Assembly (NCBI GenBank): GCA_008632985.1
Contig: QPGO01000176.1
Coordinates: 79,778-143,777 of the forward strand
Reading direction: 5' to 3'
DNA length: 64,000 bases
Source: Psammoneis japonica
Lineage: Eukaryota
Position 1 is the stretch's first letter, and each line of letters opens with the position of its first letter. Made by a program: the position numbers and the translations under genes. Below are positions 24,501-47,049 of the stretch, piece by piece. The notes beneath the pieces are model-generated. The model was not told the origin of the DNA and did no database searches. It saw only the letters and a program-made list of their open reading frames with translations.

Positions 24501-27339
24501 GTTTCGTCATGGCACCGTACAGGCAGCCGGCACATTTTGGGTTGTGCACCTTTGTAAGGCGTTTCGGTAGAATGCCTGGGGCGGCCAATAGCTTTATCAT
24601 TTTGAATGACATGTGGCCCAGGCGGTAATGCCAACGCAATAGTTCACCCTGGTCATCTGTGGCAGCAAGGGCGTCATCATTTGGTATGATGTTGATGGGT
24701 TCCGGCAAGTCCTGCTGTACCTCCGGTGTCGTGAAATCCCTTGGGTTTTCCTCGTCTGAGTCTGAACGACTTGCTCCGTCTGTTGGCTCAAATAAGACAG
24801 GAGCATCCTCATCAGCAGTGTTGCGTGCGTCTTGCGTCTCGGAAGGACGTGTCTCGGATGGACTTCTGAAGACGTCTGCATCAATTGCAGCCTCGTCATC
24901 ATTCGCAGTGCTCTTGTCGTCTGGTGGTATGATGTGAGCTTGACAGGCCACGTGCTCGATAGTTTCGACATCGGTTTGTTCTTCGACAGCGGCTGCAAAG
25001 GTCCGGTGTTTGTTGTAACCGGGTGCGGAGCGCATCTTGGCGACATTAGAGTTGGCGGACCATGGAATCAGGCGATGGCACTTGCGCTGGTCCCACATCA
25101 GCAACAGTCCGTCGTCCCTGGTCCAAGATACGGTTCCGTGAGGCTCTGGCGTGTGGTCATCAGCTTGTTGGCTCCATTGCTGCGGGCAGAGAAGACAATG
25201 AGGTGAGTCCGGCACGAGTGGCGCGTCTCGAATTTTGATGCTGTGCACTCGTCCCATGTCGTCCTCAATTGCCCACTGCACTGTTCCTTCTCCCTTAGCA
25301 CGCAAGTGGCCCTTGACACCGAGTGCCACTTTGTTGGATTTGCGAAGAGGACCAATGAAGTGTGCCTCGTTGTTGGACATGGCGCAGGAAGAATGTGAGT
25401 CGACACCGATTGCGAATGAGTCCGAATCGCAAGTGGGCTCCGTTCGCTCGGGACGGTGTGGTGTGGTTGAGTTGCACGCTCTAACCGTCTTGTGTCGCGC
25501 AATGACACAGTGAGCCTTCTTGGTGGCCACTCTGGAGCGGTGACCTGGCCTCGTCGAGGTGTGATGCCGTGCACAGCACCTCGTCGTTGGCCGTCGCTGG
25601 TGAGTCTTAACTCGTCTTGTGCCTGGTTCAGCCAGGACATGTGAGATGACCCACTCACCCAGCGTCATTGCGGCATGTGACAGGCACTTGCACTTTTCTG
25701 AAGGAAGGGATGGCATCATGAATGGCAGCATGATCCAGATCGATGCTGCACATTTCATGACGCCAGCGACCGCTGTCAGAAGCACTGACACAGTGACGGC
25801 CATCTGCAAGGACAGCAGCAGTGTCAGAGTGAACCTGCAGAGCAGTCGCTCTTGATCCACTTCGTTTGGGATGGTGGAGATGGCACTTGCGAAGGAGACT
25901 TTCTTGTCCGACGTGTCTGTGGATGGAGCAGACTGTTGCTTGCGGAGTCCACAGCCTTGGTTGCCCGGATCATCAGGTGAGTGTATGACCCAAGCAGTGT
26001 GATGTGGGCACCAGTGATGGTCGCGATTGTTGACGCGCTTGTGACAGTGCTGATGACCGTTCACTGTCTTCTCAGGAGCGTCCTCCTCAGGCGGGACTTT
26101 CTTCCAGGCTTCGTCCGCTTTCTGTCTCTGACGTGGAGTGGTCTTGGTCTTCCTTGACCGTGTGCTTCTTTCCTTGGTTGAACCAGCCTTGGCCTTCAAA
26201 GCTTTGGACAGCTGAAGGTTCTGATCCTTGATGGAGTCTACCTTGGCTGCAAGCGCGACGATTTGCTCTTCAGCCGGTGATGGTGCTCCCCACTTCTTCT
26301 CGCGCTTGAGGTTGGCACATTTGTTCAGTGCCGACGTCATGATTTGCGTCGGCGTGAATTCCTCACCGTCGTCGCACCTGTCCTTGTGTGACATGATGCA
26401 CTTGACGAATGCTTCGTCAGCAGCTGCGGCGTGTCCTTTGAACAGGTTCATGATGAGGTCGTCGCACTGCTCTCCTCTGGCTTGGAGTCCGTCAACGTTG
26501 AGCTTGGCGTGCTTGTTGAGCTCTTCGATGTCCGAGTTGACAGCCGCCATGTGCGCATCCAGGCTTGACAAGTTCTCGCGGAAGCAGTTGGTGGCAGAGC
26601 GTGTGTCAACGATGGCCTTTTGCGCAAGCAGCTTGAAGAACAGTGCGCTGATTTGATTTCCATTGATCGCACGGGAATCTGTCTCAGCCAACATCTTGTC
26701 TCTTGCTTCCTCCGCAAGGGATTGAGAGATCGCCTCGGCCATCTGCACATTGTTCTGTGCTTGTCGCGCAGGCAGATTCGCGAAGGTGTTGGCGTGGGTT
26801 CTGACATCCTGTGGAGTGAGCAGTCCGCACTCGGAGATGAGATCTCGTGGAGTTCCATTCGCATCGGGAATGGCAAGTGTGTCTCCTGCCCCTGTTTTCC
26901 ATCCTGCCTCGGCAGCTCGTTGACTGAGTGTCTCACAAAACCATTTGAGACCTTCTGAGTCGCCGTTGAACTCGCGCGGCAGCGGTGCAGCAGCGGCGTT
27001 CCAAAGCTTGAGGCCTTGCGATGTGCCGCAGTCGATGAAGTTGTTGGGACGGTGTTGACCTGGAGTCAACGCGAAGATCGGCAGTGGTGGCACAGGTGCC
27101 AATGGTGGTCCACCTGGCGGGACTCCACCTGGCGGGACTCCACCTCCGCCTCCTCCTCCACCTCCTCCGCCACCTCCTCCTGGAGGCACACCGGGAGGAA
27201 CGACTGGGGGAGGTGCAGGAGCAACTGGAGCGGCTGCAGGAGCAGGTGCTGTTGCCGGAGCAGCAGCAGTGGCAGGAGCTGCAGCGGGAGCTGCAACAGA
27301 GGCAGCCAGAGCAGCCGCGGTTCGTGTCTGCGCGACCAT
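21580..27339 (-). CDS. Copia gag-pol polyprotein, open but mutated
   Basis: 1919-aa ORF: gag, protease (GVDSHSS), GAG-pre-integrase WHYRLGH..C..C, integrase (SVDQL, HADNG, QNGIAEKRIR), RT (LYGQKQAG, YVDD), RNase H (ADADF, STTEAE, EDNSGA, ADIFTKPL); integrase precedes RT. Confidence 0.93.
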   Translation of the reverse strand: MVAQTRTAAALAASVAAPAAAPATAAAPATAPAPAAAPVAPAPPPVVPPGVPPGGGGGGGGGGGGGGVPPGGVPPGGPPLAPVPPLPIFALTPGQHRPNNFIDCGTSQGLKLWNAAAAPLPREFNGDSEGLKWFCETLSQRAAEAGWKTGAGDTLAIPDANGTPRDLISECGLLTPQDVRTHANTFANLPARQAQNNVQMAEAISQSLAEEARDKMLAETDSRAINGNQISALFFKLLAQKAIVDTRSATNCFRENLSSLDAHMAAVNSDIEELNKHAKLNVDGLQARGEQCDDLIMNLFKGHAAAADEAFVKCIMSHKDRCDDGEEFTPTQIMTSALNKCANLKREKKWGAPSPAEEQIVALAAKVDSIKDQNLQLSKALKAKAGSTKERSTRSRKTKTTPRQRQKADEAWKKVPPEEDAPEKTVNGHQHCHKRVNNRDHHWCPHHTAWVIHSPDDPGNQGCGLRKQQSAPSTDTSDKKVSFASAISTIPNEVDQERLLCRFTLTLLLSLQMAVTVSVLLTAVAGVMKCAASIWIMLPFMMPSLPSEKCKCLSHAAMTLGEWVISHVLAEPGTRRVKTHQRRPTTRCCARHHTSTRPGHRSRVATKKAHCVIARHKTVRACNSTTPHRPERTEPTCDSDSFAIGVDSHSSCAMSNNEAHFIGPLRKSNKVALGVKGHLRAKGEGTVQWAIEDDMGRVHSIKIRDAPLVPDSPHCLLCPQQWSQQADDHTPEPHGTVSWTRDDGLLLMWDQRKCHRLIPWSANSNVAKMRSAPGYNKHRTFAAAVEEQTDVETIEHVACQAHIIPPDDKSTANDDEAAIDADVFRSPSETRPSETQDARNTADEDAPVLFEPTDGASRSDSDEENPRDFTTPEVQQDLPEPINIIPNDDALAATDDQGELLRWHYRLGHMSFKMIKLLAAPGILPKRLTKVHNPKCAGCLYGAMTKRPWRSKSKRNRRIHLATSPGEAASVDQLESPTPGLIPQLKGRPTKQRHRAATIFVDHFSGLGYIYLQKGLTSAETLEAKHAFEAFARRMHVRIQHCHADNGRFADNAFIQDVKKQQQTISYCGVNAHFQNGIAEKRIRDLQEQSRKQLLHAKVRWPTAIELNLWPSALRNSNEIKNHLPNHEDGSSPLERFSSVKVQPNLKQHHTFGCPVYALHNRLQGGGRLPKWDPRARLGINLGPSTRHAGSVTLVLNLQTGLVSPQFHVQFDDFFETVRPFAGNPPTFSQWQGITGFRQLKTRSAFNIFGKSSDVPVEGSVPATTEPPEPNSDVPSQLLHPTDTSTTDDSFDNAQPDDEMLYTPPDDSDAPSDPQRTMGQPSASRSGRQRRPTERMRESQLQRAQGIVSYNAEAEAYYDAMHEDDYKLQDDMDSPVSFLASSDPDTMYFDQAMREPDRDEFIKACVKEVNDHIERKHWILIPREDVPDDVDVLPSAWSMKRKRDVKTQAVYKWKSRLNVHGGKQEHAVNHFQTYSAVVFWFTVRLLLIIAILKKWHTRQVDFVLAHPHADIEHDMHMELPAGIETKCGNGKTHVLKLLKNLYGQKQAGRVWQEHLRDGLLRIGFVQSAVDECLHFRGNVIFIHYVDDGIFASPDKSAVDKAIQDVRDENFDIDDQGTLDDYLGVNVETLPDGRMKLTQPHLINQMLEMANIPKRLPDKPTPAPSSKILHRHMSEPAFQGSFHYRSIIGKLNFLEKSTRPDVAYAVHQVARFSSDPKVSHGEAVLWLCKYLRSTRTEGIILQPSTDKSLEVHADADFVGNWNKLTAPDDVGTSKSRTGFVITYAGCPIVWTSKLQTQIALSTTEAEFIALSESLRSAIPIMNLIQEFMDHGHNVPSKTPVVHCYCKAFEDNSGALEIARLPKMRPRTKHFNLTLHHFKDHVRKGLISILPIDTADQIADIFTKPLPQNLFVKHRKSLLKW

Positions 27340-27400
27340 GGTGACAGCAGAGTAAAGCAGAATCGAGAGCTTAAGATCGATTGACTTAACTTGTAGATTT

Positions 27401-27413
27401 CGCAGAGGAAGCG
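27401..27413 (-). promoter_or_regulatory. Putative primer-binding site complementary to the D-arm of initiator tRNA-Met
   Basis: Plus strand CGCAGAGGAAGCG(TG) abuts the 5' LTR and resembles eukaryotic tRNAiMet ...GCGCAGCGGAAGCGTG... Confidence 0.55.
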
Positions 27414-27760
27414 TGTGGGAAAGTAGCCAGAATTCTAAGATTCGTCTGCACTTTCAGCGATTGAAAGCTGCAATTGCGATGCAACAATCAATCAGTGACT
27501 TCACTGTGCCAAAAGTTGAGAGGTGACAATCAGCACGTTAGAAAGATTGTGAGCAGTTTTTATGAGCAGATGCAGCTGCCATCTAAAGGAAACGCGAAGC
27601 CAAACAAGCGCGAAGCCAGGAACAAACATCGCATTCGTGACTCGGCTTCCGCGGGATTCGAGACTGAGCATTGCACACGGGGTTCGAATCTTGGATCTCT
27701 GATTTGAATCGTGGAGGTCCGATGTTGTTGTAAAAACATGCAAATGTGAATGTTGTCACA
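27414..27760 (-). repeat. 5' LTR of the young copia element (hypermutated copy)
   Basis: Colinear with 21190-21536; 13 TpA sites converted to TG/CA. Confidence 0.97.
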
Positions 27761-27858
27761 CATCGCACTTCTGGTCTTTCCGCTTCTGTTGCATGGAGGT
27801 TCAAAGCGTGTTTCAAAAAACTTGAAACACCATTGTCAAAAGCCGCCATTGATTCGGT

Positions 27859-30800
27859 TGAACTGTTTGCCATGTGGTGATGTTTTGTGTCATGAATTTG
27901 TGTGTAGAACACAATGTAATTTAGCGACAATGAGGATTCGACGTGAGTGCTGAGTCGAGCTCACTTCTTGAAAATAGTAGCACGATGTTACACCTTTTCT
28001 TTTAGTCTATTCCCTAGGTTCCTAGTGCACGTCTTCACAGGGTAATTTATTCACTTTATCACAGCCATATGCCGCATGTAGTGACAATATCATAGTATTG
28101 ATGATTTCGCTTGCGATTGTTTCGCAACAACAGCTTTCGTTCCGCAAGGTCAGGGATGACGAATGAACATCTACGAGCACAAGACGGTGCTCGTGCTTGA
28201 CGAGTTGGTTACTCCCGGGTGTGGTTCAACTATGGTGCGCATTGACAACTACAGTGTCGACCATTCTGATGTGTCTCACAGCGAACACACACGGACACAG
28301 AGCGCAACCCATGGATCTGGGGACGCCATTTCCATTCCGAAGTCATCTCGCGGAGGCAACGCGCGCGTGAGCAATTTGAAATCGCTGGGTGATGCGGCAC
28401 AACGTCAGTCAGTCGCTGAAATTGCATGTCATGTGCAGACACAAAACATCACAACGCTGCACAATTCATGATGTTGTGCTTTGCACTGGCCACTGGCATC
28501 GATCAAGTGGATCGTAGGAACGTTCTTAGTTCGCTGCACAAGTCACGGCAGTCTCATTGTGCCGGCAGACCCATTGGCAATGCAAAACTGGCTGAACAAA
28601 CGACAATGAAAAAGCGCGCATCGTGCTCACTTTTCACACAATTGTGAGTTTTTTGACCACACGCACCACCGACACCTGCCAAAACAGCACCATGGCGGCC
28701 ATTGCAGCTGTGCGAGCCGCGCGCCGTTGCCCAGGCTTCATGGACGCTGGTTCCGTGGCCCTGGCCAATGAGCAGGGAATCCACTCGGTCGACGAACTGC
28801 TTCACTTGGACGACCATGAGGACGTGACCTCACGCAAGGCCGCTCGCCGCCTTGGAGGAGCTGCTCCTCCAGCAGACCCAGCAGCTCCACCCCAACCCAA
28901 CTTGGGTGCTGCTGTCTCTCTCCATGCAGAGATGAGTCTAAAGCTTGCTGCTTGTGCCACTCGCCACTGCTCCCGCATCTCCCATGCTCCACCTGTGAGG
29001 TCCTGGACACCCTGCCCAACATCTTTGAGAAGGACTGGACGAAGATGATGGAGTCTGTTTCAGAGCACCTTCACACCTGCCGCAGTGAAACCAAGATGCC
29101 GCTTGCCTGTGTTGTTTGCAATGAACCTGCTGCACCTGCTGAGGCCGATGACGACCAGGACAACTGCTGCGGGGATGCTGTTGCCAAGATGATTGCTTGT
29201 GAATCCCATGCCATGACTGGGGCAGATCCCCAGCCCACTGAAACCTTTGTGGTGTGCAACCACAAGGTTTGGGAGATCACAGAGCAGGTGTTGCCAGGGA
29301 GCACTTGTGCTGGGCTTGTGTCAAGTCAGCACAATGTGCACAGGATGGCAGGACAGCCTGTCAAAACCTGCACGATCACTTCCTTGGCCCCAACAACATG
29401 GACAACATGGCTGGTGCAGCCAAGAAGTGCCTTGCAGGCCTCTCACACCATGGGGAGAAGTGCAGCTGGAACTTTGAGCATTGCACACGTGTTCATGTGG
29501 AGCAGCACACCATCCTTGATGGACTCAGGGGGAGCATGGCTGCACCAGCATTGACAAACAATCCAGAGTTTGCCATCTGTTGGAGAGAGCGTCAAAGATC
29601 CGAGAAGCTTGACTCAGTTAAGATGCAGATTGTGGCCAGTCCCAACCTGCACAGCAACTTTGACACATGTGTGGTCCTGTGCAAGGACTTCCTCAAACAG
29701 CCCAAGCCCAAGGACTCCAACTCTTCCTTGTGTGTTGCAGCTCTGAAGGCTCAGAAGCGCAAGCAGTGCAAGAAGGATGTCATCCATGCACAGGATGCAG
29801 AGGACAAATGCTGTCCCAATGAAGAGCATGGCTGGTTCTCGCCCAAGGCATGAAAGCGGCTTAAGACTCTGCACAAGAATGACCACGATGGTTCCAAGAT
29901 GGATGCCATGAAGCAAGTCAAGGCTCTTGCCAAGAACCTCCCTGCTCAAAGACACCATGACCAAGAACGGGCATGATGAGAATGGTGGTCTTGAGCCTGG
30001 ATGGAAGAAGCAGGAGATTGACAGCCTGCAACGGTCATGCATCTCAGCCCATTGCAGACCTTGCACCTGACTCAGACCACCATGACGGCAGCCACACGCA
30101 AGGAATCTCAGTCTGAGATTGATGGTCATGCAGACACAAGTGCATCAGGCAGGTGTGCTTTAATTTTACTTGACTGTGACCACCCAGTTGACATCACAGG
30201 ATGCAACCCCAACCCAGGCTCTGGCAAAAGCTTGCGCACCGTCAGTGGCGCCCTGATGTGCACGGATCCTGCCATGGGCCAACAACACATCTTGGCAGTG
30301 CACCAAGCCATCCATGTCCCGCATCTACAGCACAACTTGTTGGGCCCCATTCAATTGTGGCTGAATGATGCAGGCCCAAACTTGAAACCCAAGTTCCCAC
30401 TGTCAAAGCCCAACAATCAATCACATGCAATGATGTTGGAAGACATGGATGACTCAGATGAGTCAATCACACCACTGGAACTCCATGAAGTTGTGAGCTG
30501 CTTTGCCACCTCCAAACTGACTGTTTCAGAGTGCAAGGCTGCTGTGCAAGATGGCACAGTCCAGGAACTCACCTGTGAAACCCCCGCATGGGACCTGCAG
30601 GAGTCGGACTTCCCGGCCAGGGAGGGTGCCATGACAGATCCCCTTGGCTGCGTTCCTGAGATCGGGGACAATGCATGTGCTCAAATGTGGATTGTGAGCA
30701 CAAAGCTCTTGCGAAACGCAGCACAAGAGACCTCCAACGCTCTTGGGAACAAGCCACTGTGAAAAATCTTGAACGCGTGTGATGACTGTGTGCTGCTTCT

Positions 30801-33800
30801 TGCATCCATTGGCCTCTCTTTGCTCAAGACAATGAAACAGGGCTTGAAGGCAAAAGCGGAACAGTTGGCCAAGAATTGGTCCATCAGCCTCAAAGATGCA
30901 GAAAATGCAGCCAAGGTCACTGCTCAATGTGGAGCCCAAACTGTGTTGCACCCGGCGCTGTCACATCAATTCCACACCAATGACCAACAATTGCACCACA
31001 GACGCATTGCAAAAGAGATGCACTCTGACACCCTCTTCTGTCTGTCAAGTCAAGATGTGGCAATGTCTGTGTGCAGGTTTTTGGTGTGGCCAGTGGCTGG
31101 GCACGCGTCTGTCCATTGAGGTCCAAAGGGCTTGTCCACGAGGCACTGTCCCCACTCTTTGCCCAGGATGGGGTGCCACATGCCATGACAGCAGATGGTG
31201 CAAAAGAAGAGATGCTTGGTCAGTTCAAGTCAAAAGCCAGGGAGGCTGATTGCTGCATTTGACAGACCGAGCCTCACATTCCTTGGTCCAACTTTGCTGA
31301 AGGCACTGTTCGCAAGCTCAAGCGAGGTGTCGGGGATGGATGGTCAAGACTCAGGCACCCAAACATCTTTGGGATGATTGCCTTGAACTTGAAGCCTTGA
31401 TCCACTCCAACACTGTGCATGACATTTGCGAGCTTGATGGCAAAGTGCCGGAGACAGCAGTGTCAGGACAGACAGCCAACATTTTGCACACATGCAAGAT
31501 CGGATGGCATGACTGGGTCATGCACAGGCACCCAGGCCCCAGTGGGGATGCAGGACCAGCAATGACCGCCAAGATGCTCAAAGAGAATGGGCAAGTTGTC
31601 CACAGATCCTCCTGCCAGGCTCTCACCCCAGAGGAACGGCATCACAAGACACACCTGGCGTTGAGGGAAAAATTCCATGCAATGGTGGAGGCCAAGCTTG
31701 GTCCCGGGATGGCCATCAGCAACATTGATGACCCCGATGCGATCACTCCCACCTTTGATCTGCACAAGGACGACTCAGGACAAGACCCATCTGGTGCCCT
31801 GGAGGCCGACACTCCACCTGACACAGCTCACAATGTCTGCATGAACGCCAAAGTTTTGCTGCCACATGGGGACATGCACCAAACCGGCAAGATCAAATGG
31901 CGGAAGCTGAACCCGGACGGAACACCGGCAGGACAAGCCAGCGCCAATCCCACCCCAGACACGCTCGTCCATGAGGTGGAATTCCCTGATGGTCAAGAGG
32001 CCGAACCAGTGGCTGATGTCATTGCCAAGAACATGTTCGCCCAATGTGACAATTGGGGCAACCAGCATCCATTGCTGGATGCTGTCGTGGACCACAAGAC
32101 CAATGAGCATGTCATTCAGATGCAGGACATGGTCTCCCAAGACAGTGGGGGGCACTGATTCACTCGGAAAATGACCAAAGGATGGCACCTTTGTGTTCGT
32201 TGGAGAGACGGCACCACCTCTTGGGAGCGACTTGCAGATTTGAAAGATTCAAACCCTGTGGAGCTGGCTGAGTGCACCAGAGTGTGTTCTGTTGAAGACA
32301 AACCAGCCTTTGCTTGGTGGGCTCCACACACCTTCAAGAAGTGAGCAGATTGTGGCCGCCATCAACAAGCACTGCCACAAGCAGACTCACAAGTGTGGGA
32401 TGCATGTTCCCAAGACTTGTGAAGAAGCCGTCGAGATTGATGAGGCAAATGGGGACCACCAACAATGGCAGAATGCCATTGACAAGGAAATGGGTGTGGT
32501 CAAGAAAGCCTTTGTTTTCATTGATGATGATGAGAAGCTGGCAGGGTGCCAGCACATCAGATGCCACTTGGTCTTTGATGTCAAACTGCAGGACTTCAAG
32601 TGCAAGGCCAGCTGTGCAGCAGGGGGACACACCACTGAACCTCTGGCTGCACTGACATGTGCCAGTGTTGTTTCTTGTCAGAGCGCAAGGACAGAGTTCA
32701 CTCTTGCCACCCTCAATGACCTGGAGGTTAAGGCCACAGATGTCGAGAATGCCTGCATCACCACTCCCAACAGCAAGAAGACAACTGCAACTCCAGGGCC
32801 AGAGTTCAGACCTGATGCAGGCAAAAGAGCAATTGTCCAGCATGTCCTTTGTGGATTGAAGAGCGCTGGTGCTTCTTTCAGAAATCATTTGGCCTCATGC
32901 ATGAGACATCTGGGATGGTTGCCATGCCTGGCAGATCCAGACATCTGGATGAAGGAAGAGGTCCAACCCGACGATGGGTTCCGGTGCCATGCCTGCGCAC
33001 TGTTGTGTGTCGATGATGCTTTGATGGTGCACCATGATGCCACATGTGCTCTCAAGGAGATCAACCGATGCTTCAAGATGAAGCCCGGTTCAACAGGTGA
33101 TCTTGAGATGCATCTTGGAGCCAAGATTTGCAAGACAGAGCTGCCAAATGGTGTCCATGCTTGGGGCATGAGTTCCAGCAAGTGCGCCCAACAGGCCATC
33201 AAGAATTCAGAGGTGCGTCTTCATGCAAAGTGCCCGGGGATGATGTTGCCATGCCAGGCAATTGCTCCCTTCCCACGTGACTGCCCGAGGTTGATGCCAC
33301 TCCTGAGCTTGACACTGATGAAGCTCAGTTTTGCCAGTTGCAGGCAGCTGTTCTGCAATGGACAGTCAAACTTGGACGTGTGGATCTCATTGCTGAGGTT
33401 TCTGAGCTTGCCTCCTCCCTTGCAGAAAAGACACAATGCCAGGCTGGTGTTTGATCTGACACATCCGGAGATTGACATGCCTGACTTCAAGGAATGTGAC
33501 TGGAAGTCAATTTGTGGGGATGTCAAGGAGGCGATTCCCAGCAATGTGCCAATCCCTCTAGACAAGGAGGTTGATCTGCACCTGTTTGTAGACTCTGATC
33601 ATGCCAATGACAAGTTGACAAGGCATTCACACACAAGCTGTTTCATTTGCTTGAACATGGCTCTGGTTGCATGGTTTTCCAAGCGCCAGAGCACCGTTGA
33701 GACTTTGGTCTTTGCTGCCAAGTTTGTTGCCATGAAGCAGGGCATGGAAGCCTTGCGTGGTCTGAGACACAAGCTGCGAATGATGGGCACACCATTGTCT

Positions 33801-34364
33801 GGTCCATCCTGCATCTGTGGCAATGGCATGTTCATCATTCACAACACACAGAGCCCTGAGTCCACTTTGAAGAAGAAGTCGAACTCGATTTGCTGCCACG
33901 CTGTTAGAGAGTCAGTGGCAATGGGTGAATCCCTCACTGGACACATCCGATTGGAGTGCAATCCGGTGAACATTGCCACCAAGATCATGTGCAGTGGCAT
34001 GAAACAAGATGGACTTGTGAGCATGGTGCTTCACAATTTGTCAAGTCCTGAGCCAGTTCCCTCAACCCACTGGGTTTGTTGCAGGTTGTTGGGGTTCCCT
34101 TGTTGCCTCTGTGCAGCTGAATGTGACCAGACTGTAAATTGAGTCAAGCCAACTCAGTGTCTGCCTCGTCAACTTGAGGGGACTGAACAATTTACCATGT
34201 GGCAATGTTGCACATGAATTTGCATGCAGAATGTAGAATTTGGTGACAATGAGGACTCGATGTGAGTGCTGAGTTGAGCTCACTTCTTGAAAACAGTGGC
34301 ATGATGTTGCACCTTTTCTTTTAGTCTGTTCCCCAGTGCACATCTTCACAGGGCAATTCATTCA
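27859..34364 (+). mobile_element. Older degenerate Ty1/copia element (second family) with LTRs at ~27859-28053 and ~34184-34364
   Basis: Related TGAA...TTCA LTRs, PPT TTGAGGGGAC before 34184, gag (HDHFLGPNNMDNM), protease (EIDGHADT), integrase, RT (LCGLKSAG, LLCVDD), RNase H (FVDSDHA, LKKKSNSI); many stops and frameshifts; no matching TSD found. Confidence 0.88.
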
Positions 34365-35479
34365 AAGTTGTGCAGATGAAGTTGCCTCAAGAGCACCACC
34401 AACGATGGCTCTTAAGTTTTTCCCATTTTTAGGGTGGATCAACACACCAAAAAAAGAAAAAGGGGGGATGCACTGCAGCGACAACAAGAAAACTTGTGAG
34501 TCAAGCATGTGCCAAATCAACACTCCCTGTGAATGAAGACTTGTCGCGCCATGTTGCTGACGCAACGGAGCCCCAAATCCCTGTGTTCCATCAACAGCAT
34601 GATGTGCTCAGCAAGCTTTTGCTGCTTTTCAGACAAATGCTGCTCTGTCTGTTTCAACAACCATGTTTTGATGGGCCAAGCAAACAGACAACTTCCTGCA
34701 CTCAAAGGCTTGAGAGTGACATGGACTCAAGGCCGGAGAGATGCACTTGATGTGCACCCTGACCTCCAGACTTAACTGGCAACACCCACACCACCAATTT
34801 CAACAGCACAAGAGTGCTGAAGCAACTTTGACAAAAAAAAAGAGAAGCCACCAGCATCGGAGTTTAGCTCATCCATGGCTCCATTGGATGCTCTGCCAGC
34901 ATTGTCAGTCACACTCCTTGAATGATGAAGCAAAGAGAAGTGCTCGATCCTTCTCTGCATTGGAGTGGACTCAGGTTCAACGCTCTGCAGATGGGGCCCG
35001 TTGCCCTTCTCCTTTGCCTGTGGCACCATCATTGTCCCGGCACCAATCACTGACATTTTGTTGCGGCAATTTGTGCTTGCATCAGTGTGGACAGATTTTT
35101 GAAAAATGGCAATGTTTGAAACCAGAAGAAAATGGCAGGAAACAAATGTTTTTTTTCACTGTCACATTTTGTGTGGATCATGTGAGCCCCATGACATCAG
35201 CAGAACACACACAAACAAACAAGCACCAAACTCCAAGATCATTTGTTTCCTTCTTGCAGCAACCTTCAAGCACACACACCCACACCTGCACACACAGCAT
35301 CATTTCATTGTTTTGCTGACCACAACACATGGGCAACAGGCAGTGCTGGATTTTGTTGCTGACACTTTTCCTGCCAAATTTTCCAACAAAACATGCTTTG
35401 CAGTGTTGTCCTGAGAAGTTCATGCACAAAAAGAGAGAGGTGAGATGAACTCCAGTTTTTCTGCCATTTGCACTTGTTG

Positions 35480-35900
35480 CTCACTGCTTGCGCTGCACTT
35501 TCCATTGTTTCTTGACAGAGTCAATGAACCCATTGCATGGGAGCCCACAATTGTGTGGAAGACAAAGTTTCTTTTGTCTGAAGTGGTGTCACTTGATTTG
35601 GTTGCATGTGTGGCCAATTTGCTGTGACAACAACAGGATGCAGGAGAGCCTTTTTACATTCTGCCAGTTGTGCAAACTCCCATCAAGCCGCCATTGTGCC
35701 ATGCTTTTCCAAAAAATGAGCCCATTGCATGGGAGCCTGCAATTGTGTGGAAGACAAAGCTTCTTTTGTCTCAAGTGGTGTCACTTGATTTGGTTGCATG
35801 TGTGGCCAATTTGCTGCAACAACAGGATGCAGAAGAGCCTTTTTGCATTCTGCAAGTTGCACAAACTCCCATCAAGCCGCCGTTGTGTCACGCTTTTCCA
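35480..35900. repeat. ~200 bp tandem duplication within a TpA-depleted block
   Basis: AATGA.CCCATTGCATGGGAGCC..CAATTGTGTGGAAGACAAAG...CCCATCAAGCCGCC at ~35523 and ~35715. Confidence 0.85.
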
Positions 35901-36362
35901 TTGATCTGCATTTCATGTTTGGGATGTGACCTTGCAGGTGGCAGCTTGATTGGCTTGAAAAGCATGCACTGTTCTGCAGCACTTCTTTTGGCTCTCAGCC
36001 TTTTGGGCTGTTCGACGCAAAGCAAAGCATTGCTTGGTGCTCCACCTCCTCTTTTGTGTGTTGGCATGCCAAGCAAACAACTCCTTGGAGCCACCACATG
36101 AGGCAAGATCATTGTGCCAGTGCAGAACAGCACAGCAGAAACCTTCCTCTGTGACACTGTTTGATGCTGTTTGCAAGGAAAAGAACAGACAAAGTGGTCA
36201 CAGCAAAGATTGGTTGGATGTTGCAACAAGCAATCCAGGAAGATCAATGAACTTTTCTCCCTTGTGGTTTTGTTTTTGAGGAAGAGTGGCCTTGGGTCCA
36301 TTTTTGGACTCACAATGTTCTGCCTTTGGGGTTTTGCAATGCAAAGGGCCTCCATCTGCTGT

Positions 36363-39100
36363 TGAATGAATTGCCCTGTTGTCACAAGCACCAGGGACAA
36401 GACCAAAAGAAAGACTTGCGACATTTTTGCTGCTTTTCCAGAAGTGAAATCTAAACCTGAGGAACAGCTCTGTGACCAATCGCCAATGACGAGGCACACA
36501 AAACTGACTCAAATTGATTGCATGGCAAATTCTTCAGTCCCCTCAAGTTGATGAATTGAAGAGTCGGCTTGATCCAATTTGCTCTCTGACCATGTTTGGT
36601 CACTCAAACATGACAAGGAAACCCTGGTGGCCTGCACCAGAAAAACCCCAAAAGGGGCAAATGAACCCCATGTGACAGACAACTGGTCTTCACAGATGTT
36701 GTGGAGGATCATCCCCACAAGCCCATCTTGCTTCATGCCACCATGCATGATCTCAGTTGTGAGGTCTGCCAGATTGCATTCCAAGTGAATGTCCAGTCAG
36801 TGACTCACCCATTGCCACCAACTCCCTTGCGGTGTGGTGACAGATGAAGCTCGACTTCTTCTTCAAAGCAGACTCTGGACTTTGTGCACTGTGGATGACT
36901 GACATGTTGTTCTCAGGGATGTGGGGTGGGCCAGTCAAGAATGGTGTGCCCATCATCCTTGACTTGTGTTGCAAGCAGTGCAACTGCTCCATGCCTTGCT
37001 TCATGGCTGCAAACTCCACTCCAAAAACCAAGGTTTCAATTGCACTTCAGTGCTTTGAAAACCATGCTGTCAAGGCCATGTTTGTGTGAATGAAGAAGCC
37101 AGTGCGTGAATGCCTCCTTGTCAAGAACTTGTCATTTGCACGATCCAAGTTGACGAACAAGCACAGATCAACCTCCAAGCCTGGAGGCTCTGGTGCATTG
37201 GGTGGGATGGCTTCATGTGCACGTCCACATGAAATGACTTCCAGTCACATTCCTTGAAGTCAGACATGTCAATGTCGGGACGTGTCGGGTTGAACACCAA
37301 CCTGGCATCATGTCTTGCCTTGAGGTGTCCACAGACATGGAAGAAGACAGCCTCAAGATGACCCTTCCTGGGCATGGCAAGACACAAGGTTGTGAGCTCA
37401 GAAACCTCCATCATCAGATCAATGTGTCCCAGCTCCACCATCCATTGCAAGACACCTGCCTGCGACTGGTGGAGCTGGGCATCCTCTGCCTCAAGCTCAA
37501 GTGACACATCTAACTCAGGATGACAATCCTGTGGAAATGGAGCCAACACCCAGGATGGCAACATCTGTCCAGGGTGGCGTTCGTCCAGATGCGCCTTCAC
37601 ATTCTTGACAGCCTGCTGGACACACTTGCTGAAGCTGATGCCCCATGCATGGACACCATTTGGCACTTGTGCTTCTCAGATCTTGGCACCCAGTTGCATC
37701 TCAGGGTCGCCAATTGAGCCAGGCTTCATCTTGAAGTGATGATCCAATTTCTTGAGTGTCCTCAAGGCATTGCTTGTGGTGCACCATCAGTGCAGTGTCC
37801 ACACACAGCAGCACATGTGCGCAGTGCCAGAACCCATCCTTGATTCGGACACTTCCTTGAGCCACACATCAGGATCTGCCAGGCAAGGCTTCCACCCAAG
37901 ATGATGCATGCAGGAGGCTGGGCAATTCCTGAAGGCTGTGCCTGCACTCTTCAAACCGCAAAGCGTGCACTTGACTGTCACATGCCTCCCTGCATTGTGT
38001 CCAAACTCTTGGCCTGGAGTCGTTGTGATCTTCTCACTGTCAGGTGCAGCAACACAAGCATTTTCAATGTCAGCTGCCTCAACCTCTGAGTCATTCAGGG
38101 CAGCAAGAGTGAAGGCAATCTTCACACTCTCACATGACACAATGCTTGCACATGCCAAGGTGCTGGGAGTGTCAGCGGCATGTCCACCAGCTGCACAGCA
38201 TGCCTTGCACTTGAAGTCTTGCAGCTTTGTGTTGAAGACCAAGTGACATCTGATGTGCTGGCATCCCACCAGTTCCTTGTCATTGTCAATGATCTCAAAC
38301 ACCTTGTTTGCAATGCCCATTTCCTTGTCTGCAGCATCTTGCCACAGGTGGTTGCCATTTGCCTGGTCAATCTTGACTGCCTCATCGCACATCTTGGGAG
38401 TGCACATCCCACACTTGTGCACCCATTTGTGATGCCACTTTTGTTCATTGCAGCAACAATCTGCTGCTGTTTCTTAAAGGCACATGGAACCCACCACACA
38501 AAGGCTGGTTCATCCTTGATTGATTGGGCTCTGGCATGCTCAGCTGGCTCAACCAGGCTGGATTCCTTCAAGTCTGCAATGCGTTCCCAAGTTGTGGTTC
38601 CATCCTTCCAGCAAACACAAAAGTGCCATCCTTCAGTCATCTTGTGCATGGTTTGGTGTCCTCCACCACTGTCCTGCAGGAAAGTGTCATCCTTCTGGAC
38701 TGCATGCCCATCAGTCGTGTGATCAACAAGAGCACCCAGAAGCAAGCACTGATTGCCTTTGTTGTCACATTGTGCAAACATGTTCTCAGCTGTGATGTCA
38801 GCTGCAAACTCTGCTTCCTGACCATCAGGCATGCACAAGCATCTGCAATGGGATTGGCGCTGGCTCTGCCCACTGGTGTTCCATCTGAACTGGGCTTGCA
38901 CCGCTTGACCATCCCGGTTTGTTGGGTGTCCCCGTGAGGTGGCAATGCTTCTGAGTTTGCACAAACATCAAAAGCAGCATCAGGCACATCGTCCTTGCCG
39001 GGTGCACTCACAGGAGCATCCTGGTCAGCTTCATCCTTGTGCTGATCAAAAGCAGGAGCAGTGGCATGGGGGTCATCAACATCTCCAACATCAGAAACCC
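36363..39100 (-). mobile_element. 5'-truncated degenerate copia (RT-RNase H plus 3' LTR 36363-36536), related to the 27859-34364 family
   Basis: Minus-strand fragments VGCQHIRCHLVF, LCGLKSAG, ADPDVW, DMSDFKECDW, ALKKKSSFI; PPT TTGAGGGGAC followed by a TGAA...TTCA LTR. Confidence 0.85.
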
Positions 39101-39419
39101 GCAGAAAAGGCCACGAGTCACAGGTCATTGAACCCCCCCATCTCATGGAGTGTGCACACACGCAAACATTGGTTGACCCCCTTCCAGACTGAAATTGACA
39201 TTCACTCATTTGGAGCACAACATTTTCATTTATTTTCACCATGCTGATTGGTGTGTTTTGTGCTTGTTGCTCCCAGATGTGTTTTGTTCAATGTGCACTC
39301 ATTGACTTGAATGCCAACACACCAAGCAACATGGCAGCATCGCTCCACCATCTCTTGACGATTGCATTTCCTTCCAACTGAGACCTGTTCATTTTCACAT
39401 TGTGCACGCATTTCCACCA

Positions 39420-39720
39420 AAAGCGCTGCATTTCCGTCTTCATGATGCACGTCAATCATTCAGCAAAATTTTCACCTTTTTCTGTTTCCCCCTCAAAACC
39501 CATCCTCACCATCGACTCATGATTGCATCTCTGAACAGTTGAATTTCATTCCAGCTGAAACATGTTTGTTTTCACATCAGACATGGCATTGCCGCCAAAA
39601 GCACTGCATTTCCATCTTCATGATGAACGTCAATCATTCAGCAAAATTTTCACCTTTTTCTGTTCCCCCCCCAAAAACCCATCATCACTGTCGACTCATG
39701 ATGTTCCGTTTGCAGCATTT
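39420..39720. repeat. ~180 bp tandem duplication
   Basis: CTGCATTTCC.TCTTCATGATG.ACGTCAATCATTCAGCAAAATTTTCACCTTTTTCTGTT at ~39426 and ~39604. Confidence 0.8.
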
Positions 39721-42282
39721 GTCCAACCAATCATGCACAGGGCATTTGTCCCTTCCACTTGTGATCTGCAGATCCAATCCCCTGTGTTTTTTTGTGAATC
39801 AGTGCAGAACCGTGAAAGCAGTGTGACGAGGAGCCCGTGGCTTCTCTGCACAAGACTGCACTGCAGGCATCATCAAGAGCTGCCAAACAACTCTGCCCCA
39901 CCATGACAATGAAGTGCGACAGCGTTGATGCTCATTCCACCTTTTGCGAAGCATGTGTGGTCACCACAAAACAACAACCAACAACAACAAAAAAGAACAA
40001 GCTCCTTCCTTTTGACATGAGCGGCAAGTTTGTGATTGATTGTTGAGATGGCTGATCAATGAATTGGCAGCAAAACACACCTTCAGCATGGAACACATTG
40101 CATCTGATGATGCACATTCATTGTTGTGGTTGTCTCATGTGACTCACTGGTGATTTTTGCTCTGCGAGACTCAGAAATTGACCGAACATGCCACGTCAGG
40201 GTCATTGCGGTGGATGACTTGAGAGGTTGGTGAAAGCACATTTTCCTCATGCACGAGCCATGCAGAAATCATGCAGAAAAATGGATGCTTCCGTTTGTGT
40301 CATCACTTTGAATCTGTCCCGCTTTTTTCAAGTCAAGAGATGTCACAACACAAAAAGGGGAGGGCCAGCTTGCAATGGCGTGCAAAGCAGTGTGGCCAAG
40401 GCAAGTGCAGACAAATGCACAACGCCACAAAAAACAACAAAGAATTGTTGCAACTGTGCCTCAGAGAGGGGATGTGGTTGTTGTTGAGAGCCAACAAGTT
40501 CTTCAAGGAGCTGGGTTGCAGAGATCAAATGCAACATCACGAGTGAGCAATTTGGTTGATGGGAAGATTTGTGTGGAATGATTTCAGGCAGCCACTGAAA
40601 GCAAGCAGGGGAGGACTTCACAACTTGGGTGACAAGGGGGAGACCCCACATGGTGAGCTGTGCCAAGGTTGGCAAGCTGGAGCTGATGGTGGCTTGGCAG
40701 ATGTGAGCCCATTGTCACAATTTCATTGTTGTCCAACTCAAGCATTCTTACATTGCAGAAGCTGCACTTTAGACAGCCGCTTGCACATTTCGTGTGGGTG
40801 CAAACTTCTTGAATTTTGCCGTGCTGATTGGATCTGCTCACCTGGGTTCGAACTTGTGGACATTTGTTGGAGCCAGGTGCACGACATTTCATTCGAACCA
40901 ACGGACATTTGTTGGCTGGTGCGGACATTCATTTGTTTTTAACCACACCAATTTATGGTGGACTGGTGTGATTCGTGTTAAACAGCCATGATTCACAAAC
41001 AAGTGCGTGTGTGGGCACTCACAAATGCTGTCTGCAACAGTGTCCATTGGTCAGACCACAAGACAATTCATGGAAACGGGCCTCTGATGAGTGCCGGAGT
41101 TGAAGACAAGGCTCAAATGCAGACTCTCACTGCAGCGCATGGCACTCCCCACAGTGCGCTGATGTCGACTGCATGCTGACAGACTCCAAATTCCCTGGGC
41201 AATTTTTCACTCCCCCCCATTCAAAGCATGCCAAACAGTTGCCCTCTGCACACTGGAAACACCCTGTTCTTCCCCGATGGTTTCACGAGGGCTTCCCAAC
41301 AATGCTGTCCCCCCAAGGCAGGCATGTCCCGTTTTTGAGACAGAGAGATGCGTGTGCCACTCTGTGAATCACACCATGACAGGATTTAATCAAGATTGAC
41401 TGACTCAACCAAATCCGACCAAACGACTTGAAAAATGTGCCATGACAGGATTCAATCAAGATTGACCACCTCGACCAAATCCAACCCAACCACTTGAAAA
41501 ATGTGACACCCAGGATTCAAGCCCAGGTCATCAAGCAACCGGTTGCCAACCAAACCATTCACCATGCAGCTCAAGTTGAGAGGCTTTTTGCACACAGTGA
41601 CTGGATGTGTTGCAGCCAGAGAGTGACGTGCCAGCATTCAACTCTTCTTCGAATTCTGTCAGCAGGCACACAGCCATGTCTGGATGCTTGCCTTGAAAGT
41701 GCTTGCCAGCAGTTTGTCGACTTGCTCAATGTGTCTGCACTGTCATGCTTGGTTGAAAGTTTGAGCAACAGCGGACAGATGCCACCAGCAAAAGCAGCAC
41801 TCAAAGCAGGCAAATCATCTTTTGACAAAGCCGCAAAAAGTGATGGCCCGATCTTGTCATCTGCAGCTGTTCATTCCAAAATTGTTTGAGGTTTGCTCTC
41901 TGACTGCACTGTCATGATTGAGTGACAAGGTTGTTGTCTTTGCATGTCTCTGTGCATTGCTGATGTCAATCACAGGTGCACCCATTGACAATGACACGCT
42001 CCATCGTTTCTTGGATGCGCTTCCAACAAGACTGGGGCTGTTTGTGTCACTGGCAGAGGGCACTCTCTCCAGCAAAAGGATTTCACCATTGCTCATCAAT
42101 GCACAGGTTGATGAATGCTGCCGCCTTGTTCGAAATGTGGAATTTGACTGTCAGAGCGAGCCCCTCTCTCCAATTTCTCGTGTCATTTTCGGGAGACACA
42201 CGGACCGTGTCGGAGGGAGTTTCGGCCGGGAGACATGCGGACAGTGTCGGAGGGAGTTTCGGGCGACACACGGACTGCGTTG

Positions 42283-43840
42283 CAAGGATTTATAAGTCTG
42301 TCAGGATGTACAAGCTCCGGTACAAATCTACGCACGAGCCTGTTGCCATGCGTGGTACGAACACCGTTAAAATTTGTACTTCGTTTTACGGCAGTCTACG
42401 TAGGGCTTCTGACGGGACGAACTTATCATTTATAAATATTCATGCACAAATATCATAGATACCTCGAAGACGAAACGTGATGGAGGGGAGAAAACAGACG
42501 GCACACGAAACGTGATGGAGGGGGATAACAGACGGCACGAATGTGATGGTATGGTACGGTAGGTGCGTGGCGTGGATGAAGACAGAGACACGCAATGGAA
42601 TTTCAAAAATCATAGCTCTAAAATCTGCCGCCGATTGCCAATCAACCCAATGACTGATTGATTGTTGTAACAATGAGTGATGATGTATGCTGCTGTATTT
42701 CGCCAAATTGTCATGTGTTTCGACAAGCGCTGATTCACGCTAATGATCCACTTTGGGGTCGCCCGCTGGCAAGGATACGCGTGACGCAAAACACACGATG
42801 CAAGCGTCTCGTCCAAAGCATTGTCCATTACTTGAAGCCCGAGAGAAGCACTAAAATTTATGCATTGCCCCTCATCACTGGCCAAGAATCAAAAATAAGA
42901 CACCACCTAGATGGGAAAGATAGAGATGGAGAATGATATTGTTAGTTTGTTTGTCATGCCGGTACTGTAAATGCATGATGCATCAATACTGCTTTAAATG
43001 TAAACATACCTTATTGTACACATCCTTCAGAAGTAAACTGCACGAGATTCCAGCCCGCTCGCTCGCATTCCAATCGCAGAGTCTCCACGCCACCAAGATT
43101 TACCCCAGTTTTCGGTCCCCGAACCCCGAACGAGGGAGTACTACTAACCGGCACTCGGCAAGGTCATGGACGTCAATATCCAACCCATTGCACATTATAA
43201 TTGTCATTATTCGTGAAAGTATCAACTGTAGCTTGCTTGGTTCAGTCCAAAAGAGAGCGTAGGACACACCACAGCCCCGTTCCGATATAAGGAAGAACAT
43301 GAGTTGAAAAGAAATGGTGTCGACACCGACACGAAACTATGAGATATTGTTCGTCCGTAGGGGTGATACGTTGCTCAACAGCTTCTCTATATGAGTTATA
43401 AAGACGAACATGTCAAAGAAAATGAGTGAGATGCCGAAACAAAAGCACAATATAATTCGATTGCGACAGAGAGCGATAATGAGTCTCGAACCGTGGTGTC
43501 AATACAAAATCCTTTTTTCACCTTACAATTGGCCGCTTACCTTCGAAAAAGCAACATAAGCTGTTTCTATATGGAGATAAAGACTAGCAGATAGCGTTGG
43601 TACTGTTGAAAGGATCGTCAATAGTCTAATAAGCGGCGCTCCGATTATCATGGTGTGTGGTGCTTTGATGAAAATGATGCGCGATCCCTTGAAAAAATGA
43701 GGATATACAAAATATCCATAAATTAATATATTTTAACGGCGGAGTTCGCACCGTCAAGATTACTTAGAGGCTGGTGACCACGCATGGCAACACGCGTTCT
43801 ACGCAGCTTGTACATCCTGACAGACTTATATAAATCCTTG
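42283..43840. mobile_element. Non-autonomous hAT-type DNA transposon, 1558 bp
   Basis: Terminal inverted repeats CAAGGATT(TA)TATAAGTCTGTCAGGATGTACAAGCT, 8-bp TSD CTGCGTTG (42275-42282 and 43841-43848), subterminal repeats GAAACGTGATGGAGGGG; no transposase ORF. Confidence 0.88.
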
Positions 43841-45560: not shown

Positions 45561-46475
45561 AGTTGCTTTGAGAGCTTGCAACTCTCATCTATTGTACTCT
45601 CAACTGTTACACAATACCTGTCCATATATCTGCGGTCAATCTCGCTTTCGCGAACTGTTAAAGGAAACACTCCGAGGAGCCTTCTAACTCCGAAAGAGAC
45701 TGCTACATGTTGTAGGAACGATTAACGTGATCTCTCCATCGGTTGAAATGCGCATGGAATAAATATTTAAACTAAACTAAAACAAGATGTGTTGACTGCT
45801 AGTCCCCATCAGATTTGCGGTCTGATGACTCATGCTCCCTCACCACGGCACGGTCGTCAACAAGAAGGAGTGCTGCTGCCTGTGGTACCCTTTGGGGGCC
45901 CCGTGCAGGTTGTTAATAGCCCGTCAGCTCTTACAACAGCCATGTTCAATGTTTTTTTACGATTAACATGAAAAACTCGGGGCTTTCTTAACTTGGTGCT
46001 TTCCTAACCAAGGGGGCCTATTGTTTGCTTGGCGCCCCGCCAAGGTTCTGGGCTTGTCTTTTTCATCGAGGTGCTTTCCTAACCTCGCCGTTTTAGTTGT
46101 TAACATCGAGTTTCGTCTCGAGTGGGGTTTCCTGAGGGTGCAGAGAATGGGACACTCTCTGTGCATCACCCAACAGGCGGTCGTCCTACCGTACCGAGAC
46201 ACTCGTCAGTGCCAGCAATTGCAAGAAGCTTGAACCTACATGAGAAGGAAGAAGGTATAACTCAGCCAGTTTGGCATCGTTAGAAAGGGGTTAGCACTTC
46301 TTCTTGTCTTGCAGAGCGCCGCAACCATACTGCAGTGCAGAGAGGGCGGTCGATGCAGAAGAAGTGAGACAAAAACGCGTCGTGCAGAAGATCACGAGAC
46401 CACGACGCACGACGAAGTGAACGGTGTGACGATGGTGGCCCGCCAAATCTTTTCGCTGGCCTGCCTTTTTTCAAT

Positions 46476-46835
46476 TCAAACATACACTCACATCCCGCCT
46501 TCTCGGCTTCGAATGTGCTGGTTCTACATTCATTGATGAAAGCAACAACTCATTCGTGGCGCCAATTTTTACTTAACGGAAAAGATGCCTCCCACCGTGT
46601 GCATCGCTTTTCCTGTCATGTGCATCGCTTTTCGCGCCTTCCGCGGCGATTTTCAAACATACACTCACATCCCGCCTTCTCGGCTTCGAATGTGCTGCTT
46701 CTACATTTTAATTGATGAAAGCAACAACTCATTCGTGGCGCCAATTTTTACTTAACGGAAAAGATGCCTCCCACCGTGTGCATCGCTTTTCCTGTCATGT
46801 GCATCGCTTTTCGCGCCTTCCGCGGCGATTTCAAA
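46476..46835. repeat. Near-perfect ~180 bp tandem duplication
   Basis: TCAAACATACACTCACATCCCGCC...CCGCGGCGATTT repeated back to back. Confidence 0.92.
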
Positions 46836-47049
46836 AAGAAAAGCCGAAGTCGCACATCCTACTGTAGATCCTACGTGCGACGGCACCGACCCAGGGTTGT
46901 ACCGGAGAAATCACCGTGGGATCCGTCCACGCGCGACGCGAGCTCCGGCACGGCACGCGCGCGACAACGGCTTCAACCTCGTGCGTCATCGGAATTCGAA
47001 CGCATCCGAACCCCGCCCGACCAACGGCTTGTTTTACAGTGGCCCTACA

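Follow-up and report, generated by a model that had tools for sequence, protein, structure and literature searches.

Host-driven hypermutation of integrated DNA from A:T to G:C was first reported in a 2026 preprint on one chlorarachniophyte, Bigelowiella natans, in which integrated giant-virus and virophage DNA is changed specifically at TpA (Mettrop et al., bioRxiv 10.64898/2026.01.13.699255). According to the text of that preprint, two integrated viral regions had acquired 231 de novo changes, of which 230 were A to G or T to C, all of these at TpA, and the rate of about 6e-7 per site per generation was elevated about 1000-fold, the process being active only in some lines. The text also describes clusters of windows poor in TpA and rich in CpA+TpG, an enrichment of reverse transcriptase and DDE domains in TpA-poor coding sequences, and an ADAT2-like candidate deaminase. 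Here we report the same signature, at saturation, on retrotransposons of a diatom-like alga. The stretch analysed comprises 64,000 nucleotides of contig QPGO01000176.1 of Psammoneis japonica (assembly GCA_008632985.1, positions 79,778 to 143,777; hereafter the window), in which TpA is nearly absent from five blocks and from part of a young Copia retrotransposon flanked by long terminal repeats (LTRs). We consider it likely that this reflects a hypermutation of mobile DNA from A:T to G:C, specific to TpA and favouring a pyrimidine (Y) in the next position, which acts after insertion and is probably a defence of the adenine-deaminase type.

Repeat-induced point mutation (RIP) of fungi is likewise an irreversible, transition-only hypermutation of mobile DNA in sharply bounded domains. 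Its direction is the opposite, a point that was left unnamed in a preliminary description of the window: RIP makes TpA from CpA and lowers the GC content, whereas here TpA is destroyed and CpA and TpG are made. RIP creates stop codons, which the process described here cannot do, and it mutates all sufficiently long duplicated copies, whereas most of the roughly 20-40 copies of the young Copia family seem to keep TA. The RIP hallmark of a TpA excess in AT-rich relics is contradicted by the blocks, with a TpA observed/expected ratio (o/e) of 0.03, CpA/TpG o/e of 1.8 and a GC content of 0.49-0.52. DNMT4, a diatom relative of the RIP enzyme RID, is presented in the text of Hoguin et al. 2023 (PMC9998398) as having no known function, and nothing in this analysis links it to TpA loss.

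APOBEC, which acts on retroelement cDNA, ADAR, which acts on double-stranded RNA, and AID also provide host-driven, context-specific transitions aimed at particular nucleic acids, and ADAR shares the preference for U before the edited A. They differ in that they change C, or work at the stage of RNA or cDNA that precedes integration, and favour one strand, whereas here the A:T pair of integrated DNA is changed, on both strands equally. The signature of editing before integration, a single affected strand and identical LTRs, is contradicted by 13 sites that differ between the LTRs of one element, 7 as TG and 6 as CA. A full-text literature search returned no report of TpA hypermutation in diatoms, the sole relevant paper being the B. 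natans preprint; passages of Maumus et al. 2009 (PMC2806351) and of Hoguin et al. 2023 make no mention of TpA loss.

Blocks almost free of TpA

To delimit the blocks we used a 500-bp composition profile together with a list of the distances between successive TAs across the window. Pooled, the five blocks (Table 1) contained 51 TpA per 26,590 bp (o/e 0.03), compared with 1120 per 28,439 bp (o/e 0.58) in the background, which is the rest of the window minus the young Copia element and a collagen-like gene. The blocks were enriched in TG (2951, o/e 1.84; background 1.18) and CA (3101, o/e 1.80; background 1.16) and depleted in CG (493, o/e 0.30; background 1.01), while the remaining 12 dinucleotides changed little; AA and TT had o/e values of 1.15 and 1.21 in the blocks and of 1.14 and 1.14 in the background. 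The mass balance closes, with about 996 TA and 1057 CG lost and about 2171 TG+CA gained. Relative to the background density of TA, the blocks have lost about 95% of their expected number. Successive TAs in the window were separated by a median of 19 bp, whereas gaps of 500-2403 bp occurred within the blocks, the largest of which has a chance of about exp(-94.6) at the background TA frequency of 0.039 per position. By the cut-offs of the B. natans preprint (Rho TpA of at most 0.43 plus Rho CpA+TpG of at least 1.52, in runs of at least three 1-kb windows), 28 of the 64 1-kb windows qualified, in runs of up to 14. These figures confirm that the TpA depletion of the blocks is real and far beyond chance.

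The borders were sharp to <20-50 bp on the right side of the blocks and to about 80-150 bp on the left, and the adjoining genes had TA o/e values of 0.4-0.9. The preliminary description had proposed TG/CA-rich blocks nearly free of TpA, with abrupt borders and a process run nearly to saturation; its coordinates agree with ours to within about 150 bp, its count of four TAs in the second block was exact, and its claims on borders and saturation are borne out. It did not mention the depletion of CpG. Over a few hundred bases at their outer edges (11028-11500, 28251-28750, 42120-42290 and 52000-52279), blocks 2, 3 and 4 are free of TA and yet have near-normal CpG contents; a CpG-depleted core is nested within the TA-free domain in these three blocks. 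Open frames of at least 110 amino acids occurred at 2.87 per kb in the blocks and at 1.63 per kb outside them.

A Copia element caught part-way through hypermutation

The young Copia element contains a single open reading frame (ORF) of 1919 amino acids (21580-27339) with gag-pre-integrase, SH3 and RVT_2 domains. Its LTRs have the ends TG...CA, and the insertion is flanked by a 5-bp target-site duplication, CATCG, at 21185-21189 and 27761-27765. The two LTRs differ at 17 of 347 sites, every one a transition, and are 100% identical in purine/pyrimidine coding. At 13 of the 17 sites the 3' LTR has TA where the 5' LTR has TG (7 sites) or CA (6 sites); the others are two CpG transitions and two T to C changes that adjoin a mutated TA. 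The 3' LTR accordingly has 19 TAs and the 5' LTR 6, while each has 18 CpGs, and the 13 TA changes compare with 0 transversions over the 347 bp. LTRs are identical at the time of insertion. Since those of this one insertion, framed by its target-site duplication, differ at 13 TA sites, the TAs were lost after insertion and in place.

The damage is polar. The 5' LTR has lost 13 of 19 TAs, the next 2.2 kb (25130-27352) are saturated, with a TA o/e of 0.05 and a CpG o/e of 0.78, and the remainder of the element is lightly mutated (TA o/e 0.52, CpG o/e 0.88); the element is caught part-way through hypermutation. This sixth, partly mutated domain was absent from the preliminary description, whose picture of a two-state genome holds for the near-saturated blocks and breaks down here, where the states form a gradient. 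That the first ~2 kb after the 5' LTR are mutated most resembles somatic hypermutation, with its window close to the promoter. Speculatively, such polarity would suit a link to promoter-proximal transcription of the element, or to a silencing signal nucleated there. We also considered a spread of mutation from block 3 into the element, which is excluded by the TA-dense spacer of 490 bp between them.

Other copies of the family and related elements

Other copies of the young family were examined in Logan contigs of a public sequencing run of one coded sample (X1). The summed word depth was 1000-2400 on the young Copia and about 48-61 on pieces of block 3, a ratio from which we estimate a family of about 20-40 copies. 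Over all places, the window differed from the X1 contigs by 829 transitions and 134 transversions. Among the 40 best-supported of 973 differing places, 22 had TG/CA in the window and TA in the other copies, 8 had TG/CA in the window and CG in the other copies, 1 was the reverse and 9 were of other kinds. Most copies of the family thus seem to keep TA; a depletion shared equally by unmutated copies, which the preliminary description had named as fatal to its interpretation, is not what these copies show.

Normal TA contents were also found in related Copia elements. In 79 loci from metagenomes (392,572 bp), TpA o/e was 0.42-0.90 and the longest TA-free stretch measured 308 bp. The names of Copia relatives include those of diatoms such as Fragilaria and Thalassiosira. 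Because all 79 hold normal TA, the TA-free state is derived and no trait of the Copia clade. Many of these loci are CpG-poor (CpG o/e 0.06-0.4) and nevertheless retain their TpA, unlike the blocks described here. Deamination of methylated CpG accounts for the part of the block signature that runs from CpG to TpG/CpA; it cannot remove TpA.

Contigs of a second run of the same sample (X2, about 30 Mb of contigs, covering 12 of 30 bins of the stretch) hold TA at places where the window copy of the young Copia has TG/CA. On the plus strand of 22782-26982 they show 13 precise skips of 70-113 bp. Eight of the 13 have GT..AG ends on that strand, with the strong donors GTAAGT, GTACGT and, within the TA-free part, GTGAGT. 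The skips are antisense to the Copia ORF, which reads through them, and seven joined segments (24818-26871, 1485 nt) contain 12-18 stops per frame. We infer that X2 is RNA, and the pattern suggests that the young Copia family has an abundant antisense transcript that is non-coding and spliced at many places. No run recorded as RNA is listed as containing the stretch. A third run, X3, had no contigs matching the stretch.

Old relics and lost tyrosines

Block 3 contains two Copia relics, A and B. An ORF of relic A (32292-34142) matched its best Copia polyprotein with an E-value of 4e-162 and 52% identity, and contained no tyrosine (0%), 6.7% cysteine and 4.9% histidine, whereas its matches have 3-5% tyrosine. 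Conserved columns were defined as those with at least 20 homologues and one residue at 60% or more. All 13 conserved tyrosine columns were changed, 10 to cysteine (TGY) and 3 to histidine (CAY), while other conserved residues were mostly retained (for example D at 14 of 17 columns, K at 11 of 12 and G at 16 of 21). These replacements explain why Pfam missed the reverse transcriptase in this 632-codon frame, despite the single-sequence match of its 616-residue ORF.

The two relics are 68-72% identical, or 86-87% with transitions ignored (69.5% identity in the alignment of 31725-34036 with the inverted 39079-36699). Of 289 adjacent double differences between them, 96 were TG in one copy and CA in the other, followed by only 9 in the next class; each such pair marks a single ancestral dinucleotide that was resolved independently in each copy. 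The relics are truly old, since they are also separated by 238 transversions and 107 gap columns. A non-coding repeat of 200 bp provides a further comparison, with one copy outside block 3 (27856-28058) and another 6 kb away inside it (34181-34364). Only the inside copy is mutated: about 9 TAs of the outside copy are TG/CA there.

Among the 150 best matches listed for the relic ORF, which are representatives of protein clusters, four (P0170, P0196, P0198 and P0259) were free of tyrosine or nearly so. All four are fragments of Copia reverse transcriptases with cysteine or histidine at 39 of 45 conserved tyrosine columns. They are just 34-48% identical to the relics in the window, and two are encoded on contigs of 1.4-1.9 kb in Logan assemblies. 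No tyrosine-free protein was found among 118 further relatives.

Strand, sequence context and relation to CpG loss

TG and CA were about equally frequent in every block, and their order was random in runs tests, both for 96 informative relic sites and for all TG/CA of each block (z from -0.9 to +1.4). Strand-coordinated tracts, a sign of a processive single-strand deaminase, were looked for in the relics and blocks and not found. Both strands are affected equally, and the sites resolve independently.

The surviving TAs depend on their flanks (R, purine). None of about 331 expected survived in RTAY, compared with 17 of about 542 in asymmetric contexts and 34 of about 179 in YTAR, which made up 34 of 51 TAs in the blocks and 191 of 1125 in the background (Fisher's exact test, p = 3e-14). 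Relative to background density, survival was 0.29 for TTAA, 0.21 for CTAA/TTAG and 0.03-0.06 for the mixed classes, and it was 0 for GTAC, ATAG/CTAT, ATAC/GTAT and ATAT (457 background sites). In strand-asymmetric contexts, YTGY+RCAR, which would result if the A that changes is one followed by a pyrimidine, gained 772 and YCAY+RTGR 285, an estimate that assumes strand-symmetric decay of CpG; with an even split of the approximately 583 CpGs lost from that class, almost every TA change would fall on the TAY strand. TAY is a preference and not a rule, with RTAY lost first and YTAR last.

Loss of TA is fast and comes first, whereas loss of CpG is slow, because the saturated part of the young Copia and the edges of blocks 2, 3 and 4 are free of TA at near-normal CpG. 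The two coincide in the old blocks and yet are separate processes. We read the loss of CpG in the blocks as ordinary 5-methyl-CpG deamination of silenced elements.

Contents of the blocks and neighbouring genes

The preliminary description held that the blocks are restricted to repeats. This part of its interpretation stands for three of the five: block 3 is a nest of Copia relics and other repeats with a read depth above the unique level, a segment of block 2 (13561-13934) resembles one of block 4 (50722-51067) when transitions are ignored, and 51062-52125 of block 4 shares inverted homology with the 5' region of relic A (29150-30119). The contents of blocks 1 and 5 and of most of block 2 matched nothing identifiable beyond a weak ankyrin fragment in the following searches. 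In Pfam, only a weak RVT_2 match and a sub-threshold ankyrin match came from the six-frame read-throughs of blocks 2 and 3, the three frames on the minus strand of block 1, and 72 out of 80 open frames (at least 110 amino acids) in the five blocks. A search of proteins of 151-482 residues with the longest block 1 frame found no relatives. When 44 Copia polyproteins were compared with the window by relaxed tblastn, matches beyond block 3 and the young Copia were at noise level, terminal repeats at the block ends, sought in purine/pyrimidine coding, did not exceed shuffled controls, and the window contained no tRNA genes or Rfam matches.

Table 1. Positions of the TA-depleted blocks and of the Copia sequences in the window
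Feature	Position	Strand	Description
TA-free block 1	5549-8023		5 TA, o/e 0.03; CpG o/e 0.23; weak ankyrin fragment at left edge
TA-free block 2	11028-15218		4 TA, o/e 0.015; CpG o/e 0.14, most decayed block
TA-free block 3	28251-42290		31 TA in 14,040 bp, o/e 0.036; CpG o/e 0.32
TA-free block 4	47163-52279		9 TA, o/e 0.03; CpG o/e 0.38
TA-free block 5	63234-64000		2 TA; continues past window end
Copia relic A	30061-34142	+	pol region matches diatom-type Copia polyproteins
Copia relic B	36351-39090	-	inverted relative to relic A
Young Copia element	21190-27760	-	one ORF, 347-bp LTRs, target-site duplication
Saturated part of young Copia	25130-27352	-	first 736 codons, gag-protease side
5' LTR of young Copia	27414-27760	-	6 TAs left
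3' LTR of young Copia	21190-21536	-	19 TAs kept; reference state for 5' LTR
Unmutated spacer, young Copia to block 3	27762-28250		22 TAs in last 350 bp

The ankyrin-repeat fragment (Ank_2; 25-28 bits, close to the cut-off) lies on the minus strand at 5535-5715, just within the left border of block 1, and could stem either from a host gene trapped in the domain or from a foreign element. Within block 3, the summed contig depth at 34340-35006 was about 1250, compared with 70-300 around it, and this segment, which is also covered by X2, probably belongs to a younger element of higher copy number. A small group of surviving TAs lies at 34135-34430, in the region of this deeper stretch. Tandem or near-tandem duplications of about 100-190 bp with 84-97% identity occur at 66-401, 35523-35900, 39349-39702, 46475-46836 and 48814-49333, several of them inside TA-free blocks.

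Among the large intron-free genes of the window are those for a collagen-repeat protein, a Duc1-domain protein, an ATP-grasp protein and, on the minus strand at 768-3503, a PI4-kinase that includes a PH domain. The kinase has its best relatives in diatoms (Cyclotella, Thalassiosira, Nitzschia, Chaetoceros and Skeletonema; 50-63% identity), with no identical entry, which agrees with nuclear DNA of a diatom or a close ochrophyte. The collagen triple-helix repeat ORF (60161-62557, 798 amino acids, Pfam E-value 1e-99) has a strongly purine-rich strand, and its region has a GC content of 0.62, about 8% T and long overlapping frames on both strands. Its low TA content (60.7-62.5 kb) reflects a T-poor composition and not hypermutation, since CpG o/e there is 1.4-1.7.

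Origin of the TpA loss

Under the mechanism that we favour, the substrate would be transposon-derived nuclear DNA, consisting of Copia LTR retrotransposon relics plus other repeats. After insertion, A:T would be changed to G:C in place at TpA, to give TG or CA depending on the strand struck. Both strands would be attacked and each site resolved independently, with 5'-T-A-pyrimidine preferred; the process would run to about 95-97% completion, halt at sharp domain borders, and be much faster than neutral decay and than the decay of CpG to TpG/CpA in the same blocks. The most likely agent would be a DNA adenine deaminase that converts A to inosine, read as G, and that is possibly related to TadA/ADAT2. 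As a genome defence, such an enzyme may be guided to chromatin that is silenced or foreign, with sense/antisense RNA as a possible intermediary. The preliminary description had suggested chromatin- or homology-defined domains; a trigger by homology alone, as in RIP, agrees poorly with the data, because most copies of the family seem to keep TA and the 200-bp repeat is mutated in one place only.

Native composition, whereby the elements or a viral donor never had TA or lost it by selection, has nothing beyond the composition itself to recommend it and is refuted by the replacement of tyrosine by cysteine or histidine at 13 of 13 conserved columns, the asymmetry of the LTRs, the normal TA of all 79 related loci and the TA carried by other copies; we give it virtually no credence. 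Hardly more credible is an ADAR-like editing of retrotransposon RNA, with its U-A preference, before reverse transcription, so that copies arrive already mutated. The identified targets are indeed retrotransposons, and the young family probably gives rise to RNA in sense as well as antisense orientation. Yet both LTRs are copied from one template and differ at 13 TA sites, which refutes RNA editing as the main route; TG and CA are equal and interleaved where a change of the sense strand only is expected, relics A and B resolved the same sites differently, and a non-coding repeat is mutated just in its block 3 copy. We also regard it as very improbable that assembly or base calling produced the pattern, by reading modified bases (5-methylcytosine, N6-methyladenine) of silenced DNA as T and G (TG from the reads of one strand, CA from those of the other), even though this would mimic strand-symmetric conversions of CG and TA. 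At a word depth of about 48-61, contigs of X1 agree with block 3 to within 0-10 differences in each piece of 461-1091 bp, as noisy long reads would not, although this agreement is not independent proof, as X1 is of the same sample, has no recorded library type and possibly served to build or polish the assembly itself. Furthermore, the two relics differ by transversions and gaps as well, tyrosine-free Copia ORFs occur on contigs of other Logan assemblies, and the same signature was measured by Illumina sequencing in B. natans, according to the preprint text.

Two further routes have a somewhat better, although still small, chance. Polymerase eta is known for A to G errors at WA motifs (W, A or T) in somatic hypermutation, and T:G mismatches from 5-methyl-CpG deamination could recruit non-canonical mismatch repair together with an enzyme of this kind. 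Such error-prone patch repair would combine the CpG decay of the blocks with their A:T to G:C changes, and the two LTR differences from T to C next to a mutated TA are A to G changes at ApA on the other strand. It appears unlikely because an error of the WA type should also erode AA, whereas TA is about 95% erased and AA/TT is unchanged, and because TA loss in the young Copia is complete at a CpG o/e of 0.78, so that CpG deamination was not the trigger there. The second route, which we find similarly doubtful, is base modification: the T of TpA could be oxidised or otherwise modified (for example to 5-hydroxymethyluracil by an enzyme of the TET/JBP type) and mispair with G, or an N6-methylated A could be deaminated, with the same strand-symmetric change of TA to CA/TG in either case. 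A symmetric pattern does not tell targeting of A from targeting of T, since RTA with T as the target mirrors TAY with A as the target. Nothing in the window supports it, and the authors of the sole experimental precedent read their data as A-deamination, also without proof as far as the text of the preprint goes.

Several observations weigh against the proposed deaminase and its TAY preference. Sequence context cannot separate deamination of A from a T-directed route, as the two are mirror images on the two strands, and the deaminase and its targeting signal are both inferred; no ADAT2/TadA-like deaminase is encoded within the window. The gain of YTGY+RCAR depends on the symmetry assumed for CpG decay, and where the ancestor is known the preference for TAY was 15 to 6, hence not absolute. 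The ratio of cysteine to histidine in the four tyrosine-free public proteins, 18:21 compared with 10:3 in the relic of the window, misfits a strict TAY rule if these proteins stem from the same organism. The identification of block contents as repeats or transposons covers blocks 3 and 4 and a part of block 2, and the proposal does not account for the saturation of just the 5' 2.6 kb of the young Copia.

If the agent is a deaminase-type defence, the process would be of the same kind as the TpA hypermutation of B. natans, as far as the preprint text describes it: TpA is changed to TpG/CpA on both strands, in domains where the DNA is foreign or selfish, the rest of the genome being normal. The hosts differ, a rhizarian there and a diatom-like stramenopile here, as do the targets, since those identified here are Copia retrotransposons. 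Erasure is also more extreme, with an o/e of 0.03 compared with a Rho of 0.45 for the giant-virus region of B. natans. A preference for a 3' pyrimidine and YTAR survivors are seen here, whereas the words 'context' and 'trinucleotide' do not occur in the preprint text, the supplements of which may hold data on flanking context; decay of CpG coincides with the blocks here, and 'CpG' and 'diatom' are likewise absent from that text.

Implications

Beyond this precedent, the window adds the proof of post-insertion timing from an LTR pair, a preference for TAY over TAR that constrains the enzyme, and the independence of TA loss from CpG decay. Because TA is changed to TG/CA, tyrosine codons, TAA and TAG stops and signals of the TATA and AATAAA types are removed. 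New stop codons do not arise, since TGA is made only from TAA, and dead elements therefore keep long frames, such as those of 1919 amino acids and 632 codons described here. Gene finders and repeat annotators will misread such TA-free regions.

In bacteria, TadA naturally acts on U-A-C in a tRNA loop, and early base editors derived from it favoured YAC. The TAY motif of the proposed editor may echo this target of TadA-type tRNA deaminases. It is a tentative proposal, which we hold to be somewhat less probable than its opposite, that diatoms, and perhaps SAR or beyond, carry a natural 5'-TAY DNA adenine editor directed against silenced mobile DNA, an 'anti-RIP' defence that runs to completion. 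If this is true, maps of TpA alone would chart the defended, silenced fraction of the genome, and this enzyme would represent a naturally occurring base editor of adenine in chromosomal DNA. The half-mutated young Copia is an obvious target for mutation-accumulation work. The presence of the signature in a diatom-like alga as well as in a chlorarachniophyte suggests that the mechanism is widespread among major marine phytoplankton.

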